From positions 31,134-95,133 of IMG/VR virus record IMGVR_UViG_3300037249_000698: DNA of 64,000 bases; one strand, given 5' to 3'. The position numbers were made by a program, and so were the translations under genes. Below are positions 12,625-58,621 of this stretch, in pieces. This DNA comes from a virus (lineage: Duplodnaviria > Caudoviricetes). Numbering within the stretch: the first letter of the stretch is position 1; each line of letters opens with the position of its first letter. The notes below the pieces were generated by a model that was given only the letters and a program-made list of their open reading frames with translations, had not been told where the DNA came from and searched no databases.

Positions 12625-12751
12625 GCCTGTTAAATATCCCATATAGTTTTTATATGCTTGACAACAAAATTTAATCTAATATAATTATTAAGTTAGATTT
12701 ATTTTTAGGTTGTCTATCTAACATAATATCACATATAATTATTATGCTTTA

Positions 12752-13017
12752 TACTTGACATAATATCTAGTATAATTTTTATATAGTGTAATTGACCTAA
12801 ATATACAGTATAATTTTTATACATATAATTTTTATACCAGACCAAACCAGCTTTTATACGTATGATATGGCTATAATTTTTATGTGGTATGCGTCTAAAA
12901 ACTAGGCGGAGGGGGCATACTTTTTATACCCATTTTTTGCCCTCGGAATATCTAAAGTTTCCCCTCTGATATAAAAAGTTTTACAACATTCCCCTCTGAT
13001 TCAAAAAATGTTACAAT
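12752..13017. repeat. Right boundary element: TATAATTTTTAT x4, G-rich run, 30-bp tandem repeat
   Basis: tataatttttat at about 12771, 12809, 12824, 12872; ggcggaggggg 12905-12915; ttcccctctgat...ttacaa at 12959 and 12989. Confidence 0.65.
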
Positions 13018-16207: not shown

Positions 16208-16247
16208 AAATACTTGCAAAACATTTTTAATTTGTTATAATAGCTAT

Positions 16248-16328
16248 ATCAAAGTTCATATTTTGATACTCCTTATGTGAAGTTGTTTGTGTTATACCCA
16301 CGGTCGCTTTTTGGCTGTGGGTTTTTTT
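16248..16328 (+). ncRNA. Candidate antisense sRNA A (anti-AUG loop plus anti-SD)
   Basis: TTGCAA 16214 -16- TATAAT 16236 (extended -10); no sense ORF; CAT 16257 and ACTCCTTA 16268; terminator 16297-16328. Confidence 0.6.
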
Positions 16329-16352
16329 ATATTTTGACGTTATATAATTCCA

Positions 16353-27236: not shown

Positions 27237-27318
27237 TAAAACCTAAAAATTCATACTTTTTATTTTTATGCTATAATTATTTTTGCCGTTCCGAGTAATC
27301 AGAACGTAAGGATTTAAA

Positions 27319-28033: not shown

Positions 28034-28048
28034 TAAGGCAGACAACTT

Positions 28049-28315
28049 ATGTCTAATAACTATAACGCTCTTGTGGTGGCTCTCGCACAATTCGGTTATG
28101 TCACCGTTTCAGATAACTATAACATTGAACTAACTATCGACTATGCCCATTTCAATTCAGACGAACAATCTATTATCAATACTATTAAATCTGTTTTCGA
28201 GGAAAATAATTTTGAGCCTATTATAGAAAATCTGCCTTATTACTCTAGTTACGACCTCGCTATTACCTCTACTGATTTTAGCAAGCCGTTTGTCGTTTCA
28301 GTAATATACGCATAG
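28049..28315 (+). CDS. Hypothetical protein (possibly frameshifted)
   Basis: 88-aa ORF; an open +1 frame continues to about 28436. Confidence 0.6.
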   Translation: MSNNYNALVVALAQFGYVTVSDNYNIELTIDYAHFNSDEQSIINTIKSVFEENNFEPIIENLPYYSSYDLAITSTDFSKPFVVSVIYA

Positions 28316-30515: not shown

Positions 30516-32054
30516 ATGACTAAAGCGTTAAAAATTGACTCATCTGCCGTAGGGTTGTATATGGCTAAGGAACAGTCTATCAATGTTCTGCCTACTACAC
30601 CTGTTTGGCAACAACTTGAACCATCTGAAATTGGCGATATTGGTGGCGAAACCACTCAAACCTCTCGTACAATTATCAGACCTGATAGACAGAACAACCG
30701 TGGTGCTATTACCGATTTGAGTGCTAGTGCTGACTTTACACAGGAACTTTCTCAAAACAATTCAAACGAGTTGTTTCAAGGTTTCTGCTTTGCAAAGGCT
30801 CACGAACAGTTTACTACTAAGCCTCTGAATGTCGGTGATCCTACTACCACCGTTTCGTGTTCTACTGACACCTACACTCTTACCGATACTACTTTTGATA
30901 CTTCCTCTATCAAGGCTGGTACTCTTATTAAGGCTAGTGGTTTTACAGTTGCATCTAATAACGGTTTAAAGGTTGTTGATAGCGTTGCCGATAACGTAAT
31001 CACCATTACAAGTGCAGGCGGTGTTACTACCGAAGATGCCGGTGACGGTGTTCTCGAAGTCGTTGGTAAGACTGTTTCAGCTACTATTACCGTAACAGGT
31101 AAGGTTAAACTCGGCTTTACTGATGCTGACGATTTAGGACTTGAAATCGGTCAGTGGGTATTCGTTGGCGGTGATACTAACAAGTTCGCTAATAACGACC
31201 CATTCTACGCTCGTATCGGTGCTATTGAAAGCGATGGTTTAGTTCTTGACTTTACCACTAATGCTACCGAACTTACCGCTGAATCAGAAACCACTATCGA
31301 CCTGTTCTATGGCATGACAATCCATAACGAAAAGGATATTGATAAGATTAAGAGAACCACATATACAATCGAGGAACGTCTTGGCTTTGCGGATCAGGAA
31401 AACACTATCCCACAAGCATCTTACGTTTCAGGTTGTGTTCCTAGTGAAATTACAATCAATATCGAAAACTCTGCTCTGTCTGCTATTCAGTACACCTTTA
31501 CAGGTTGCCGTTTCTACACTAAGAAAGGTACTCTCGCTACTGGTACTCGTTTAGATCCGTGGGATGAAAAGGGTTATAACAATGCAAACGAAGTTTACCT
31601 CGCTTGTCTCTCTACCGTTTCAAACGACCCTACCAAGACAGCACCTAACGAACTCTTTGCATTTATGAGTTCAGGTAATATCAGTATCAACAACAATACC
31701 TCTGAAAACAAGGCTGTTGGTTGTCTCGGAGCTTTCGATATTTCTGTCGGAAAGTTCGATGTTACAGCAAATCCTAGTGTATATTTTGTCGATGTTGACG
31801 TTATCAAGTCTCTGAAAGAGAACGTTGACGTAGGTATGCAGGTGATTTTAGCACGTAACAACGAGGGTATTATCTTTGATATTCCTATGATGGGTATGGG
31901 TGCTAGTATTCCGTCTGTAAGTGATGGTGAACCGCTGACTATGGACTTGACTGCAAACGGTGCTAAGTCTAAGTATGGTTATACTTTCGCATATCAGAAC
32001 TTTAAGTATCTGCCTGACGTAGCTATGGCTAGTGATATGACTGGTTTTGATTAA
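30516..32054 (+). CDS. Major tail tube protein
   Basis: KIDS...GL..A.E, W..LEP and R...G..TDL.AS motifs; 512 aa; synteny. Confidence 0.88.
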   Translation: MTKALKIDSSAVGLYMAKEQSINVLPTTPVWQQLEPSEIGDIGGETTQTSRTIIRPDRQNNRGAITDLSASADFTQELSQNNSNELFQGFCFAKAHEQFTTKPLNVGDPTTTVSCSTDTYTLTDTTFDTSSIKAGTLIKASGFTVASNNGLKVVDSVADNVITITSAGGVTTEDAGDGVLEVVGKTVSATITVTGKVKLGFTDADDLGLEIGQWVFVGGDTNKFANNDPFYARIGAIESDGLVLDFTTNATELTAESETTIDLFYGMTIHNEKDIDKIKRTTYTIEERLGFADQENTIPQASYVSGCVPSEITINIENSALSAIQYTFTGCRFYTKKGTLATGTRLDPWDEKGYNNANEVYLACLSTVSNDPTKTAPNELFAFMSSGNISINNNTSENKAVGCLGAFDISVGKFDVTANPSVYFVDVDVIKSLKENVDVGMQVILARNNEGIIFDIPMMGMGASIPSVSDGEPLTMDLTANGAKSKYGYTFAYQNFKYLPDVAMASDMTGFD

Positions 32055-32070
32055 CAGTAGATAACTAAGT

Positions 32071-32100
32071 AAAAGGCTAGGGTAAAACCTAGCCTTTTTT
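32071..32100 (+). terminator. Intrinsic terminator
   Basis: aaaaggctagg/cctagcc followed by T6. Confidence 0.85.
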
Positions 32101-32158
32101 ATTTTGTGTTATAATCTTAATACTATAATTTTTTATTCACAAATTTACGGAGATTGTT

Positions 32159-39498: not shown

Positions 39499-39551
39499 AT
39501 TGCCTTTTGTTGTATGGTATAATTACTAGAGTTTATGTAAAGGTGATTGAC

Positions 39552-54401: not shown

Positions 54402-55532
54402 ATGAAATTAAAAGAACTTAATTCAGTTTTACAAGACTATTATTCTAAAGTTATCGGTGCGGTAGGCAAAGAGGGTATTCCAAAGAATATCAAGATTACC
54501 GTTGCCGATGGCAAAGTCAGTTTTCAGTGTACCGATGTTGAAATCAGTCTTACTGTTACCGAGCCAATCCATGATAATGCTATCGACAGTTGCGAAGATG
54601 GTATCGTGTGTATTGACGGAAAAACTTTCGGTGATATTCTGAAAAAACTGCCAAAAGAAAATTATGTCACAATCAAATCAAATGATAACGACAAGGTTAC
54701 AATCTCTAGCGGTAAGTTCCGTAACAGTATCAAGTCAGTCGATAGTAGCTTATATCCTGCTATCGAACTTTCTCAAAATCAGCCGTATAATACTGCCGTT
54801 GTTAATGCCAAAAAGTTATCAGTATTACTGGATAAACAGAAATTCTGTATTGCTTCTGATAGCTATCGCATATTCCTAAGAGGTGCGTTTTTTAATTTTG
54901 ATGGTAAGCAAATGAGGTTATCTACCGCAGACGGTCACTTATTGTCTAACTCTACAATCCCTTGTGAGACTGCAAACGAGTTTAGTTTTATTCTCCCTAA
55001 AAAGTCAGTAGACAATCTTGTTCAGCTACTTAATAACACAAATTCAGAAGATGTTACAATCAACGTTGCTCAAAACGGCATCAGAGTGATACAAGATAAC
55101 ATCGAGTTCTTATCCGTTCTGATAGACGCTAATTACCCTGATGTTACCACACTGTTTAATTTTACAAAGGATAAATCTATTACTGTAAACTGTAAAGAAT
55201 TTACCGATGTGATTAAGAGAGCGTTGATTACTACAAACAATCTTAATAAAGCAATTCAGCTAAAATCTTCCGGTGAAACATTGACTATTTCAAGTCGTAA
55301 CACATCAGGCGAACAGTCGGAGGAAACAATTAGTGTTATTCCTAACGGTAAAGATTTTGACATAGCGTTTAACGGTGAATATCTAATCAATATCATTAGC
55401 AAGATAGATACAGAGGATTGTGAGTTGATAGGTGGTAATTCAAACAATGTTATTGTTAAACCTTGCAACGCTAGTGAAGATACAAACTTTACAGACAATA
55501 TCAACTTTGTGATAAGCCGTGTTGTAATTTAA
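54402..55532 (+). CDS. dnaN: DNA polymerase III beta sliding clamp
   Basis: 376 aa; TDVEISL, TADGHLL, ILPKK, LIDANYPD, IAFNGEYL. Confidence 0.92.
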   Translation: MKLKELNSVLQDYYSKVIGAVGKEGIPKNIKITVADGKVSFQCTDVEISLTVTEPIHDNAIDSCEDGIVCIDGKTFGDILKKLPKENYVTIKSNDNDKVTISSGKFRNSIKSVDSSLYPAIELSQNQPYNTAVVNAKKLSVLLDKQKFCIASDSYRIFLRGAFFNFDGKQMRLSTADGHLLSNSTIPCETANEFSFILPKKSVDNLVQLLNNTNSEDVTINVAQNGIRVIQDNIEFLSVLIDANYPDVTTLFNFTKDKSITVNCKEFTDVIKRALITTNNLNKAIQLKSSGETLTISSRNTSGEQSEETISVIPNGKDFDIAFNGEYLINIISKIDTEDCELIGGNSNNVIVKPCNASEDTNFTDNINFVISRVVI

Positions 55533-55549
55533 TTAAATCTGAATAATAA

Positions 55550-55592
55550 AAACCCTCTCGCATTAAACATGTTTGAGAGGGTTTATTTTTTT
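55550..55592 (+). terminator. Intrinsic (probably bidirectional) terminator
   Basis: aaaccctctc/gagagggttt flanked by A- and T-runs. Confidence 0.8.
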
Positions 55593-55634
55593 GCACATCT
55601 ATGTAAGGTCATTATATCACGTATTCATCAAAAC

Positions 55635-55706
55635 AAAAAAGGCGAGTACGCCAATACTCACCTTTAACACTTTAGGAATATATATGTCTAATTTAACTGA
55701 TTTACA
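55635..55706 (-). ncRNA. Candidate antisense sRNA C
   Basis: Minus strand TTGCAT-16-TATAAT (55740-55713, extended -10); body antisense to TAGGAATATATATGTCTAATTTA; terminator ggtgagta/tactcgcc-T6. Confidence 0.6.
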
Positions 55707-55742
55707 GATAGTATTATAACACAAAATTTTATAAATGCAAAT

Positions 55743-56726
55743 CTAGCAATGTTTAACTCTCTTACTAAACTCGTCTAATTTCCCTTTGTTTACAGGTCGG
55801 CTGTTAATCTCTCCGAGGTAACCACATATTCTCCGCAGAGCGTGTAATTTAGCAGGGTCGCTTGTGCCACATTTAGGACAGGTGAACTTTCCATCCTTGA
55901 ACACACTCTCACCCAAAAAACCACAAGTGCAACTATCTATCGGTGAGTTTATCGCAAAGTACGGAACTTTGTCATACGCATAATCCCATAGAGTTTCTAA
56001 TGCCGATAGGTTATGTGACAAGTTAGGTGTTTCAACATAACTGATAAATCCACCGTTCGCCCACTTCGGATATGGAGACTCAAAATCAATCTTTTGGAAT
56101 GGATTGACCTTTACTCGCACATCTAAATGGAATGAGTTTGTATAATACTCTTTATCAGTCACACCTGCAACAATACCAAACTCTTTTCTATCCTTATCTT
56201 CAAAAGTATGCGACAATGATTCGCTCGGTGTTGAATACAGTGAGTACCCCATATTCTCTGCCTTTTTCCATTCCTTACACTTGTTTGACAAGAACTCAAC
56301 AACTCTTTCTGCAAAAGTCTGCATATCTCTGTTATCGGTTAGAGCATCGTCAGATAAGAACGTTTGATGTACTGCTTCATTCACACCTACATATCCTAAA
56401 CTGATACTTGCTCTACCACCGAACAGATACGGATAAATGTAATCATCAGGTTGTAATCTCAACAATGCTCCATATTGCCAACAGATAGGTGCTTGTTTTG
56501 CCTGCACTGATTTAAGTCGTTTCAGTCTCATCTGTAAGCCTTTGTGAGCCAATTCGCACACCTTATCGAGTTCTTTAAAATATTCCTCAATTCTGCTATT
56601 AACATCAGTTGCTTTTAATTTTAGTGCTATTCTAGGCAGATTAACACTCACCACGCCTGCGTTAAATCTTCCCGAATATTGCTTTTCACCTTTTTCGTTA
56701 GTCCATTCACCTAAGAAACTTCTACA
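55743..56726 (-). CDS. nrdD: Anaerobic ribonucleotide reductase NrdD, exon 2
   Basis: Starts CRSFL; GRFN.GVVS.NLP, YSTPSESL, YYTNSFH, glycyl-radical RICGYLG. Confidence 0.95.
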   Translation of the reverse strand, partial: CRSFLGEWTNEKGEKQYSGRFNAGVVSVNLPRIALKLKATDVNSRIEEYFKELDKVCELAHKGLQMRLKRLKSVQAKQAPICWQYGALLRLQPDDYIYPYLFGGRASISLGYVGVNEAVHQTFLSDDALTDNRDMQTFAERVVEFLSNKCKEWKKAENMGYSLYSTPSESLSHTFEDKDRKEFGIVAGVTDKEYYTNSFHLDVRVKVNPFQKIDFESPYPKWANGGFISYVETPNLSHNLSALETLWDYAYDKVPYFAINSPIDSCTCGFLGESVFKDGKFTCPKCGTSDPAKLHALRRICGYLGEINSRPVNKGKLDEFSKRVKHC

Positions 56727-57463
56727 CATTTTGTTCAACATAAGTCGCAACCTTATATCCGTTCTTTACGAACCGCTGTATGTCACCATACAGTTCAGAC
56801 TATATCTTCACTATTTCTAGTGCCTACCATTTCGAGTGCCATTTGCTTGCACCCTACATCGCTACATTCATCACGATTAGTCGTTAGACATTAGATAAGA
56901 AAATTCATAATCATAATTGTTATTGCGTTCTTTCTTCAACACCATCGTAAGGCATTTTCTATTATACCCAAGCTGTTCTGCACATTGTCTAATGCTTTTA
57001 AACACAAGCACCTCTTTTGTGATTTTGTGAACAGCCTGAACCTTATGACAGCGTTCTCTAAACTTATAACAACCATGCTTATAACCGTCAGCGGTGTTCT
57101 GCTGATTTGTACCCCAAGTCAAATTTTCAGCACGACAATCGGTTTTTACATCGTTTTTGTGCATAACCTGTGGCAGATTGTTTGGATTAGGCACAAAGGC
57201 TTCTGCAACCAAACGATGAACATAATGTTCGTAACGCTTGTTGTTTTTATGTAAACCAACCTTGTAATACCCAGTAGTACCTAACCACTGGCAGATTTTA
57301 ATGGTTTTGTTTTTCCTAACAGAAAACACTTCACCGTTTTCGTTTACATAATATCTTTCATATCCAACAATCTTTTTTAACATTTTCTTATCCTTAGTAC
57401 GGTATTGTCTCAATGAGAGTTCCACCGTTTAGATAGGTTTTATATGAGCAGTTTTTAAAGTTT
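56727..57463 (-). mobile_element. Group I self-splicing intron in nrdD (737 nt)
   Basis: Exon ends ...ATGGGU pairing with GCUCAU (P1, U-G); R-like AACGACUA; S element AAGAUAUAGUCU; terminal G; splicing restores ASMG-CRSFL. Confidence 0.92.
56877..57383 (-). CDS. Intron-encoded HNH homing endonuclease (NUMOD4-HNH type)
   Basis: GYERYYV...G.V.S, VHRLVAEAFVPNP.NLPQV.HKN..K.D....NL.W; ATG after AAGGA. Confidence 0.92.
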   Translation of the reverse strand: MLKKIVGYERYYVNENGEVFSVRKNKTIKICQWLGTTGYYKVGLHKNNKRYEHYVHRLVAEAFVPNPNNLPQVMHKNDVKTDCRAENLTWGTNQQNTADGYKHGCYKFRERCHKVQAVHKITKEVLVFKSIRQCAEQLGYNRKCLTMVLKKERNNNYDYEFSYLMSND

Positions 57464-58621
57464 ACCCATGCTCGCTTTAAAACCACCAGTGACCTTAACC
57501 ACTTGATCGTAGTTGAGAACATCGGGGTACATTCTCTTTGAACTACATTCTAAAGCTAACTCTTTTATATCATAGTTCGGGTCTTGTGGCTTTAAATTCA
57601 ATCCACGCTTTAATGTGAATAACAGTTTAGGGAAAATTGCTGTCTTGCGTTCTTTACCCAATCCTTTAATACGTGTTTTCAAAATCCACTTCTGAATTAA
57701 CTTGCTCCATTTGCTTTCACCTAATCCAAAACCTAATGTCACGAATGGAACTTGGGCGTGTGAATTATGTGAACAGTTGATGGAGTACTCCAACTGTTGA
57801 AACGCATCTTCACACTCTTTTTCTGTTTTATCCCATGCAAGTCTATTGAGAATATTCTCATCTAAGTCAAATATACCTGCGTGTTCAAAATCTTTTTTAG
57901 TATTTTCTAGGTATCTGTTATAAGACTTTTCAACGTATGGTGCTAAAACCTCGTCAACCCTATCAACAGTAGTACCGCCGTAATTTTGTGATGATACCGC
58001 TGTGATAATCTGTGACATAACATTTGTAGCCACACGAATTGAGTTAGGTGTAGTAATGTGAGCAGTACCCATTACAAAGCCGTTTTCGAGCATGTCCTTG
58101 ATATTAACAAGGCAACAATTTATGTAGCCACCAGCAGGAGAAAAACCTAGATCATGGAAATAAATATCACCTCGGATATGAGCATCAGCTAATTCTTTAG
58201 GAAGATACTGACTTAACGCCCATTGTTTACAGACTTCACTAGCAATAAAGTCTCTACTAGCACAGTTTGTATTACCGTCAATATTTGCGTTTTCATTCAA
58301 TATCTTAGAACTGTGTTTAGAGTAAATGTCACTGATAATAGATTTAAGACTTCTAGCTGAATTTCGTTTCTCACGGTAATGAGCAAAATTACGCAAGGTA
58401 TAAACACAACCGCACTTACCGAGAGATTGTTCAACCATGTCTTGTATTTCCTCAACGGAATACACAGCAACATCTTCGTTCTTAAATGTATTGCAAAGGC
58501 GTACAACCTGTTCGATAGCCATTTCAACAGGCTCATCGTTTACTTGTGCTTTCTTAATAGCACTCTTAATTTTTTCAGCGTCAAAGTCAACCTTTGAGCC
58601 ATCTCTTTTAATCACTTTCAT
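57464..58621 (-). CDS. nrdD: Anaerobic ribonucleotide reductase NrdD, exon 1 (with ATP cone)
   Basis: VIKRDG ATP cone, ENAN, IYFHDL, NCCL, S.NYGG, IFPKL, RMYPD. Confidence 0.95.

Follow-up and report, generated by a model that had tools for sequence, protein, structure and literature searches.

We analysed a stretch of 64,000 nucleotides of viral DNA (hereafter the window), which corresponds to positions 31,134 to 95,133 of the IMG/VR record IMGVR_UViG_3300037249_000698. The source is a complete virus record of 95,133 bp with direct terminal repeats and 34.6% GC. Our subject is a candidate small-RNA unit in the 210-bp spacer that separates two convergent genes. On the plus strand lies the gene for a DNA polymerase III beta-type sliding clamp (54402-55532; Pfam DNA_pol3_beta domains 1-3, PHROG 947), and on the minus strand lies the C-terminal half of nrdD, which encodes the glycyl-radical domain (55743-56750; PHROG 487 and 4218, Pfam NRDD and Gly_radical). 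nrdD ends with the stop codon TAG at 55745-55743 (-), and the small-RNA unit begins directly after it. A first-pass annotation had described a minus-strand promoter at this site (TTGCAT-16-TGTTATAAT), a body of about 72 nt without an open reading frame (ORF), and a terminator; we recovered all of these parts at the same positions.

The promoter begins 2 nt past the nrdD stop codon. The -35 hexamer TTGCAT (55735-55740, -) stands 16 nt upstream of the extended -10 element TGTTATAAT (55713-55721, -), which is of the TRTGnTATAAT type and has TG at -15/-14. This is the arrangement of a sigma-70-type promoter. Sequences of the form TTGCAW-N15-18-TATAAT occur five times in the window, compared with 0.53 expected. 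Of the 17 copies of the motif TGnTATAAT in the genome, 8 are intergenic, although intergenic DNA makes up 9% of the genome. Because of this enrichment, TGnTATAAT probably represents a functional class of promoter. Three plus-strand copies in the structural gene block (27261-27277, 32099-32115 and 39507-39523) lack a recognisable -35 and stand right after T-rich terminator tails; these may be a distinct promoter class of the phage, perhaps middle or late. When the whole 95-kb genome was searched for ORF-less sites at which a terminator follows a strong promoter within less than 100 nt, only two loci were found, the nrdD unit and a plus-strand locus at 16214-16330. The first-pass annotation called these two loci cassette C and cassette A, respectively, and we keep the name cassette A below.

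The predicted small RNA is about 71-72 nt long (55635-55706, -), contains no ORF, and would start at G55705 or U55706. It has a fold energy of -16.2 kcal/mol (z = -2.8). Three parts can be told apart. The first is a conserved 5' box, CUGUAAAUCAGUUAAAUUAGACA (55685-55707, -), a candidate seed that is single-copy in the phage genome and is predicted to be single-stranded except for a possible mini-hairpin of 3-5 bp (GUC/GAC). The second is a middle part specific to the lineage (55670-55686, -), which contains CAU (55686-55684), AUAUAU and UUCCU (55678-55674); this is the stretch that could be called 'anti-AUG / anti-Shine-Dalgarno'. The third part comprises a GUUAAAG linker, an intrinsic terminator and a U-tract (55635-55668, -).

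The terminator hairpin, GGUGAGUA-UUGGCG-UACUCGCC, is followed by U6 (55665-55635, -) and is the first terminator downstream of nrdD. Its stem has 12 pairs, counting an A-U extension and two U.G pairs, and its apical loop is UGGC, or the hexaloop UUGGCG if the weak apical U.G pair stays open. The first-pass annotation had assigned the terminator to the minus strand by a G-U pair, and this orientation holds: one pair is U.G on the minus strand but a C.A mismatch on the plus strand, the hairpin folds with -14.7 kcal/mol on the minus strand and -10.5 on the plus strand, and the long T-run is on the minus side only. Thus, a GC-containing hairpin, a direct U-tract and strand asymmetry, all features of an intrinsic terminator, are found together.

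To place the unit in context, we recovered relatives of the virus as metagenome contigs by protein-guided searches with NrdD and the clamp; one of these is a rumen assembly. A homologous unit lies directly after the nrdD stop codon in L002, L003, L013, L004, L005, L007, L416-L419 and L431-L433. We count eleven distinct related contigs with such a unit, besides three whose cassette is the same as in the window. The cassette of L002, L003 and L013 is identical to that of the window, and L431-L433 are of the window type with few changes. The hexamer TTGCAT is unchanged in all of these window-type contigs and falls within an 18-nt segment that is found only in this lineage. L418 is window-like but lacks the segment that bears UUCCU. 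L004, L007, L416, L417 and L419 form a further type (the L004 type), in which the -35 is weak (TTAAGC or TTAAAC); an extended -10 tolerates a weak -35. L005 retains the promoter and the terminator but has a different 5' hairpin domain. In L004, L005 and L007 the promoter overlaps the last nrdD codons, and the -35 position is inside them. In the more distant L421 (NrdD 59% identical) only a plain terminator is present at the 3' position of nrdD, and therefore the promoter and the body are an added feature of the clade of the window. At the same site L008/L420 and L001/L006, whose NrdD proteins are 76-77% identical, carry non-homologous units made of a promoter (TTGACA-17-TATACT or TATCAT), an RNA of 45-66 nt and a terminator. 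The 3' position of nrdD seems to attract small transcription units.

Wider searches returned no further members. BLASTN of the locus against 50,697 phage records gave no match. Pattern scans of IMG/VR with the 5' box and with the junction of the nrdD end and the promoter gave only chance matches and the known relative. Among the covariance models of Rfam 15, none matched the unit at its gathering score, and the best sub-threshold model was STnc390 (E = 1.3). The predicted RNA is, by these comparisons, a new, unnamed family.

The pattern of conservation within the unit follows its predicted parts. The TG and all six positions of TATAAT are invariant in every member of the family, with T, G or A at the 'n'. 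The spacer and the discriminator of the promoter are variable. From the predicted +1 the sequence is conserved again, beginning with the box (C)UGUAA(A/U)UCAGU(C/U)..AGACA, which is common to the window, L418, L004, L007, L416, L417 and L419 with 0-3 changes. After this box come the lineage-specific middle, an invariant GUUAAA(G/A) and the terminator, always in this order; GUUAAA is invariant in all eight aligned variants, L005 included.

Comparison of the window with L432 showed how strongly the RNA is constrained. In the last 150 nt of nrdD the two differ at 20 sites, of which 18 are third codon positions (36% of all third positions there); in the 207-nt spacer they differ at 13. In the RNA 4 of 72 positions differ, whereas about 26 would be expected at the third-position rate, and the 34 nt at 55703-55670, which hold CAU...UUCCU, do not differ at all. 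The RNA body is therefore about six times less diverged than the adjacent third codon positions. The same was seen among L004-type pairs, which have 6-12 differences in each last 60 nt of nrdD and 0-2 in the 31 single-stranded positions of the RNA; the bodies of L004 and L007 are identical (76/76) within a segment that is 89% identical.

The terminator behaves differently from the body. No other part of the unit has changed as much between lineages as its hairpin, yet pairing in the stems is always preserved; between the window and L418, four of the 12 pairs show double compensatory changes, and the hairpin of L419 is entirely different. The apical loop is replaced by UUGCAG in L417 and L431-L433 and is different again in L419. 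The loop versions UUGGCG (window, 55649-55654) and UUGCAG each occur in both window-type and L004-type lineages, which suggests recombination or a constraint on the loop. We also considered the apical loop UAUUGGCGUA as a special element and rejected it: the same 10-mer tops about 14 unrelated terminators in IMG/VR, approximately the number expected by chance.

Sequence anatomy, strand asymmetry, positional orthology, conservation specific to the promoter and the RNA, and covariation in the stem are thus all present at this locus. Invariance of the promoter, conservation that sets in at +1, covarying terminator stems and a slowly evolving body together are the signature expected of a transcribed, functional RNA with its own promoter. 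Because promoter, RNA and terminator are strongly conserved in related phages, the unit is very likely a genuine small transcription unit rather than a chance promoter, and it probably encodes a real phage small RNA (sRNA).

Based on these data, we propose that an independently transcribed, conserved sRNA gene of about 71 nt lies at the 3' end of nrdD, that it is of the 3'-end type, and that its product acts in trans. On balance we lean towards this proposal. In our model, the sigma-70-type promoter (TGTTATAAT, with the -35 TTGCAT in the window lineage) would fire just past the nrdD stop codon, and the transcript would end at the intrinsic terminator that also ends the nrdD mRNA. The RNA would begin with an A/U-rich 5' part that is conserved and mostly unpaired (GUAAAUCAGU..AGACA) and continue with a lineage-specific middle, GUUAAAG, the terminator hairpin and a U-tail. 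Its single-stranded 5' and middle region would most likely pair in trans with at least one host or phage mRNA. In the window lineage, the middle (CAU-N6-UUCCU) could cover a Shine-Dalgarno sequence and a start codon. We infer the transcription from this promoter, the base-pairing action and the identity of any target.

Several points weigh against this proposal. The internal transcription start site is a prediction. That the 207-nt spacer as a whole has diverged so little (13 differences) could be due in part to recombination, not selection. The hairpin is needed as the nrdD terminator regardless, and the A-rich stretch beside it is the U-tract of the other strand, so that part of the conservation has an explanation that does not involve an sRNA. 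The convergent gene of L416 and L417 also has no terminator other than this hairpin. L005 has its entire 5' domain replaced. Finally, our searches of the phage, of representative prokaryote genomes and of IMG/VR, which used exact 19-21-mers and, for the phage, RNAduplex, found no target.

These points lead to a simpler explanation, namely that the unit serves only as transcriptional punctuation. The terminator would be conserved, and the promoter would make a short RNA without a target in trans at a convergent junction. Such a promoter could insulate the junction or occupy it with RNA polymerase, its RNA could be antisense to convergent read-through, or it could be the leftover promoter of a lost downstream gene. 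The location of the unit at a convergent junction fits this explanation, as do the negative target searches. In L416 and L417 the unit fills the whole spacer of 98-100 nt; its hairpin, which UUUAACUUUUUGUCUUUUUG follows on the other strand, alone terminates the convergent gene, so that one bidirectional hairpin serves both genes. In L001/L006 and L421 a co-directional gene follows nrdD.

A second promoter-terminator pair, which follows the first in the window (55619 to 55545) and has an analogue in L418, also favours punctuation. Between the two terminators of the spacer lies another extended -10 element, TGATATAAT (55611-55619, -), which is kept in L002/L003 and L431-L433 with one flanking change. 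The short transcript predicted from it is about 60 nt long (55545-55604, -), has a fold energy of -16.3 kcal/mol (z = -3.9), is antisense to the 3' end of the clamp mRNA, and would end in the minus-strand reading of the clamp-gene terminator. The latter is a hairpin at 55550-55592 (+), which we identified by sequence and by folding its minus-strand reading; as T-runs flank it on both sides, it is bidirectional.

However, punctuation accounts poorly for where the conservation lies. A terminator role leaves unexplained both the invariant 5' box and the 34 unchanged nucleotides at 55703-55670, which are 20-60 nt from the hairpin, and it is the hairpin itself that varies most from lineage to lineage. 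Nor would one expect the exact TG and TATAAT to survive in a decaying remnant promoter across a third-position divergence of about 36%. We therefore regard punctuation alone as possible but a good deal less probable than an sRNA that acts in trans.

We searched for a target of the sRNA among translation starts and other complementary sequences. Across the complete phage genome, exact complementarity to the unpaired body extends to 13 nt at most, at a site inside an ORF and away from any start. When RNAduplex was run against 138 phage translation start regions, shuffled RNAs equalled or beat the nrdD RNA in 20% of cases and that of cassette A in 25%; the start regions of nrdD, the HNH endonuclease gene and the clamp gene ranked in the lower half. 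At the L004-type loci, target pairing showed nothing over background. The prokaryote scan covered one genome per species (185,579 species) and exact matches only. The 21-mer TGTCTAATTTAACTGATTTAC had no match in these genomes, and the 19-mer TAGGAATATATATGTCTAA had four, which is the chance expectation and includes none that is convincing as a target. An exact 20-mer scan of IMG/VR matched nothing but the copy of the cassette that a relative itself carries (L260, on the L002 contig). Scans of exact k-mers are blind to short, imperfect pairings.

These searches bear on the first-pass annotation, which had proposed a reprogrammable toolkit: cassettes A and C would be copies of one chassis with interchangeable antisense start regions, and each would silence the gene whose start it mirrors (AGGAAUAUAUAUGUCUAAU in the case of C). 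Part of its observations stands. The plus strand opposite the body does carry a Shine-Dalgarno-like AGGAA (55674-55678), six bases, an ATG (55684-55686) and the frame MSNLTDLQIVL, which begins with the predicted MSNLTDLQ and stops after 11 codons. The bodies of A and C both bear a Shine-Dalgarno-spacer-ATG arrangement on the antisense strand, and such an arrangement has a base rate of about 2% in a random 47-nt stretch. The first-pass annotation had also suggested comparing seeds across related phages, and within the window-type lineage CAU..UUCCU is indeed invariant.

The rest of the toolkit did not hold. In an alignment, A matches C only at the positions of the consensus hexamers and the T-runs. 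Because there is no alignment beyond this consensus, the 'same design' of A and C amounts to generic parts of the same kind rather than a chassis in common. The L001 and L002 records yielded no homologue of cassette A, although these are fragments and the evidence is thus weak. Nor is the anti-initiation guide a conserved design. UUCCU is restricted to the window-type lineage, and its segment is absent from L418, L004, L007, L416, L417 and L419; GACAU, the source of the 'anti-AUG', is common to the window and L418, whereas the L004 type has GACAA. The mirrored frame shrinks to five codons in L418, and in the L004 type its ATG is missing. The in-window match reported near 28049 exists as the 10-mer TATGTCTAAT at 28048, but it is one of 23 ten-nucleotide matches, which is the level of chance. 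A start region complementary to the seed, expected in a host gene or elsewhere in the phage, was detected neither in the complete phage genome nor in the 185,579 species genomes (19-21-mers) nor in IMG/VR (20-mers), and these scans would miss short, imperfect pairings. Taken together, we consider the toolkit improbable.

What survives of the toolkit is the idea of a frame with changing contents, in a loose form and across phages rather than within one genome: the promoter, GUUAAAG and the terminator are kept, and the middle or the 5' domain differs by lineage. A bolder version of our proposal is that this clade of rumen phages maintains an 'sRNA socket', in which a fixed promoter and GUUAAAG-terminator frame carries lineage-specific guides that are themselves constrained. 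Its variants would be the window type (CAU-N6-UUCCU), L418, the L004 type and L005 with its wholly different 5' hairpin. We regard the socket as speculative and rather unlikely. If each guide silences a different start region of the host or of rival phages, then the locus would be a naturally modular, fast-evolving RNA-silencing locus, with the modularity lying between phages and not between A and C.

The variable 5' domain led us to consider a relation to CRISPR systems. The RNA could mimic a host repeat (as an RNA anti-CRISPR or solitary repeat unit), or it could be a crRNA-like guide, with UGUAAAU as the 5' handle and a spacer directed against competing phages. The order of promoter, short RNA and terminator fits such elements, and the 5' domain of L005 and the 5' UGUAAAU seem to resemble Clostridial type I-B repeats. 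When the 21-nt core of the L005 domain was searched with up to three mismatches in 401 sampled Clostridia genomes, a weak test, only scattered single matches were found, as many as with a reversed-pattern control, and they did not form arrays. No protospacer-like 20-mer match was present in IMG/VR outside the homologous locus. The hints about the host point to Gram-negative bacteria, not to Clostridia. The best bacterial matches of NrdD are in Gammaproteobacteria (48-50% identity), the nearest cultured relatives of the capsid protein (40% identical) are from siphoviruses of Pseudomonas, Salmonella and E. coli, and relatives of the clamp protein were found only among phages. As both the NrdD and the capsid matches point this way, a Gram-negative rumen host is plausible; an initial assumption of a Firmicutes host was dropped. 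A CRISPR-related function is thus very doubtful.

The plus-strand frame could instead be a micro-gene, with MSNLTDLQIVL as a leader peptide or micropeptide. The Shine-Dalgarno-like AGGAA lies 6 nt ahead of the ATG. However, we found no credible plus-strand promoter, the best candidate being TTGCAC-16-TATATC, which lacks the final T. In L418 the frame of five codons has no Shine-Dalgarno sequence, and we give this idea hardly any weight. A type I toxin-antitoxin pair was also considered and rejected: the opposite frame, at 11 codons, is far too short and is not conserved in relatives.

Another idea is that the short RNA opens an A/T-rich stretch and primes DNA replication. The unit adjoins the genes for the clamp, the polymerase and nrdD, and the window-type body contains the run ATATATAT. 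This A/T run is lineage-specific, though, and the strong terminator would halt the transcript immediately. In addition, the cumulative GC skew peaks at the convergent junction, a pattern that suggests a terminus rather than an origin. We therefore consider it very unlikely that the RNA is a primer or an origin transcript.

The surroundings of the unit vary among relatives. In the window nrdD is split into ORFs at 57455-58621 and 55743-56750 (-) by an ORF for an HNH endonuclease (56877-57425). A sub-threshold match to the Rfam model Intron_gpI (56776-56959; 35.7 bits, E = 1e-6) adjoins this ORF. The interruption (56776-57454, -) is probably a group I intron with a homing endonuclease, an arrangement also known from T4 nrdD. 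In L417 nrdD is split likewise by a gap of 214 nt without an HNH ORF. L002, L003, L007 and L431 have an extra insertion of about 275 nt in the 3' end of nrdD, some 55-75 nt upstream of the stop codon and equivalent to window positions of about 55800-55820; it is absent from the window, L004, L432 and L433, and it may be a second intron without an ORF. L431-L433, L002 and L003 carry a gene of 261 amino acids between the clamp gene and the bidirectional terminator, which the window (55533-55550) lacks. The small-RNA unit remains joined to nrdD whether or not this gene is present. Elsewhere in the window, the plus strand at 12710-12900 has at least four closely spaced promoter-like repeats, the last part being TATAATTTTTATA, without an ORF and followed by a terminator.

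In sum, we describe a candidate phage sRNA that is backed by an invariant promoter, by conservation that begins at +1, by covarying terminator stems and by a slowly evolving body. If it is expressed, it would be a tractable phage sRNA tied to a module of nucleotide metabolism and replication, and its lineage-specific middles could reveal how phage regulatory RNAs switch targets. Our analysis also corrects an over-reading: the likeness to cassette A is that of promoter and terminator consensus sequences, and our searches detected no counterpart of the 'antisense copy of a start region'. To our knowledge, few small RNAs have been described from virulent or uncultured phages, and almost none of these have comparative support.

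The unit can be compared with several known systems. In enterobacteria, DapZ and MicL are 3'-end sRNAs that have their own promoter and share the terminator of the mRNA. Like these, the nrdD unit has a promoter that lies at the end of the preceding coding region or within it, an RNA that would end at the intrinsic terminator of the upstream gene, and a conserved unpaired region 5' of that terminator. Among phages, lambda OOP RNA, P22 Sar and P1/P7 C4 are short antisense RNAs (about 70-80 nt) that have both a promoter and a terminator. Sar and C4 act by blocking ribosome binding sites, and the first-pass annotation had proposed this mechanism for the nrdD unit. Sar, C4 and OOP are encoded in cis opposite their target or match a target in the same phage; in contrast, no gene lies opposite the nrdD unit, and the complete genome contains no start region that matches it. 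The unit also resembles the 6S RNA of lambda (pR'-tR'), where a strong promoter and a terminator within 200 nt or less yield a short RNA that is abundant in lambda. However, the lambda 6S unit forms the leader of the late operon, and antitermination by Q leads to its read-through, whereas the nrdD unit is followed by a convergent gene only. Lambda OOP RNA is also treated in PMC5869508.

Two recently described systems are of particular relevance. PMC13376802 describes an ompU-derived modular sRNA of Vibrio cholerae, in which a variable 5' module is joined to a conserved 3' region; this modularity resembles the variation of the nrdD unit between lineages. Unlike DapZ, MicL and the ompU-derived sRNA, to which it bears no sequence relation, the nrdD unit comes from a virulent-looking uncultured phage and is known from its sequence. 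According to bioRxiv 10.1101/2024.10.31.621285, the lambda RNA LPR1/PreS is about 68-88 nt long, is processed into LPR1-S, has its 3' end at the operon terminator tL2a, and possesses a GC-rich stem and a poly-U tail. LPR1 is described there as Hfq-bound and as acting in trans on host mRNAs during the lytic cycle, with dnaN and other targets revealed by RIL-seq. The nrdD unit, a predicted gene with a predicted promoter of its own, and LPR1/PreS have no sequence similarity, but both are phage-encoded, of similar length, and take their 3' end, in the nrdD unit a predicted one, from the terminator of an upstream gene or operon.

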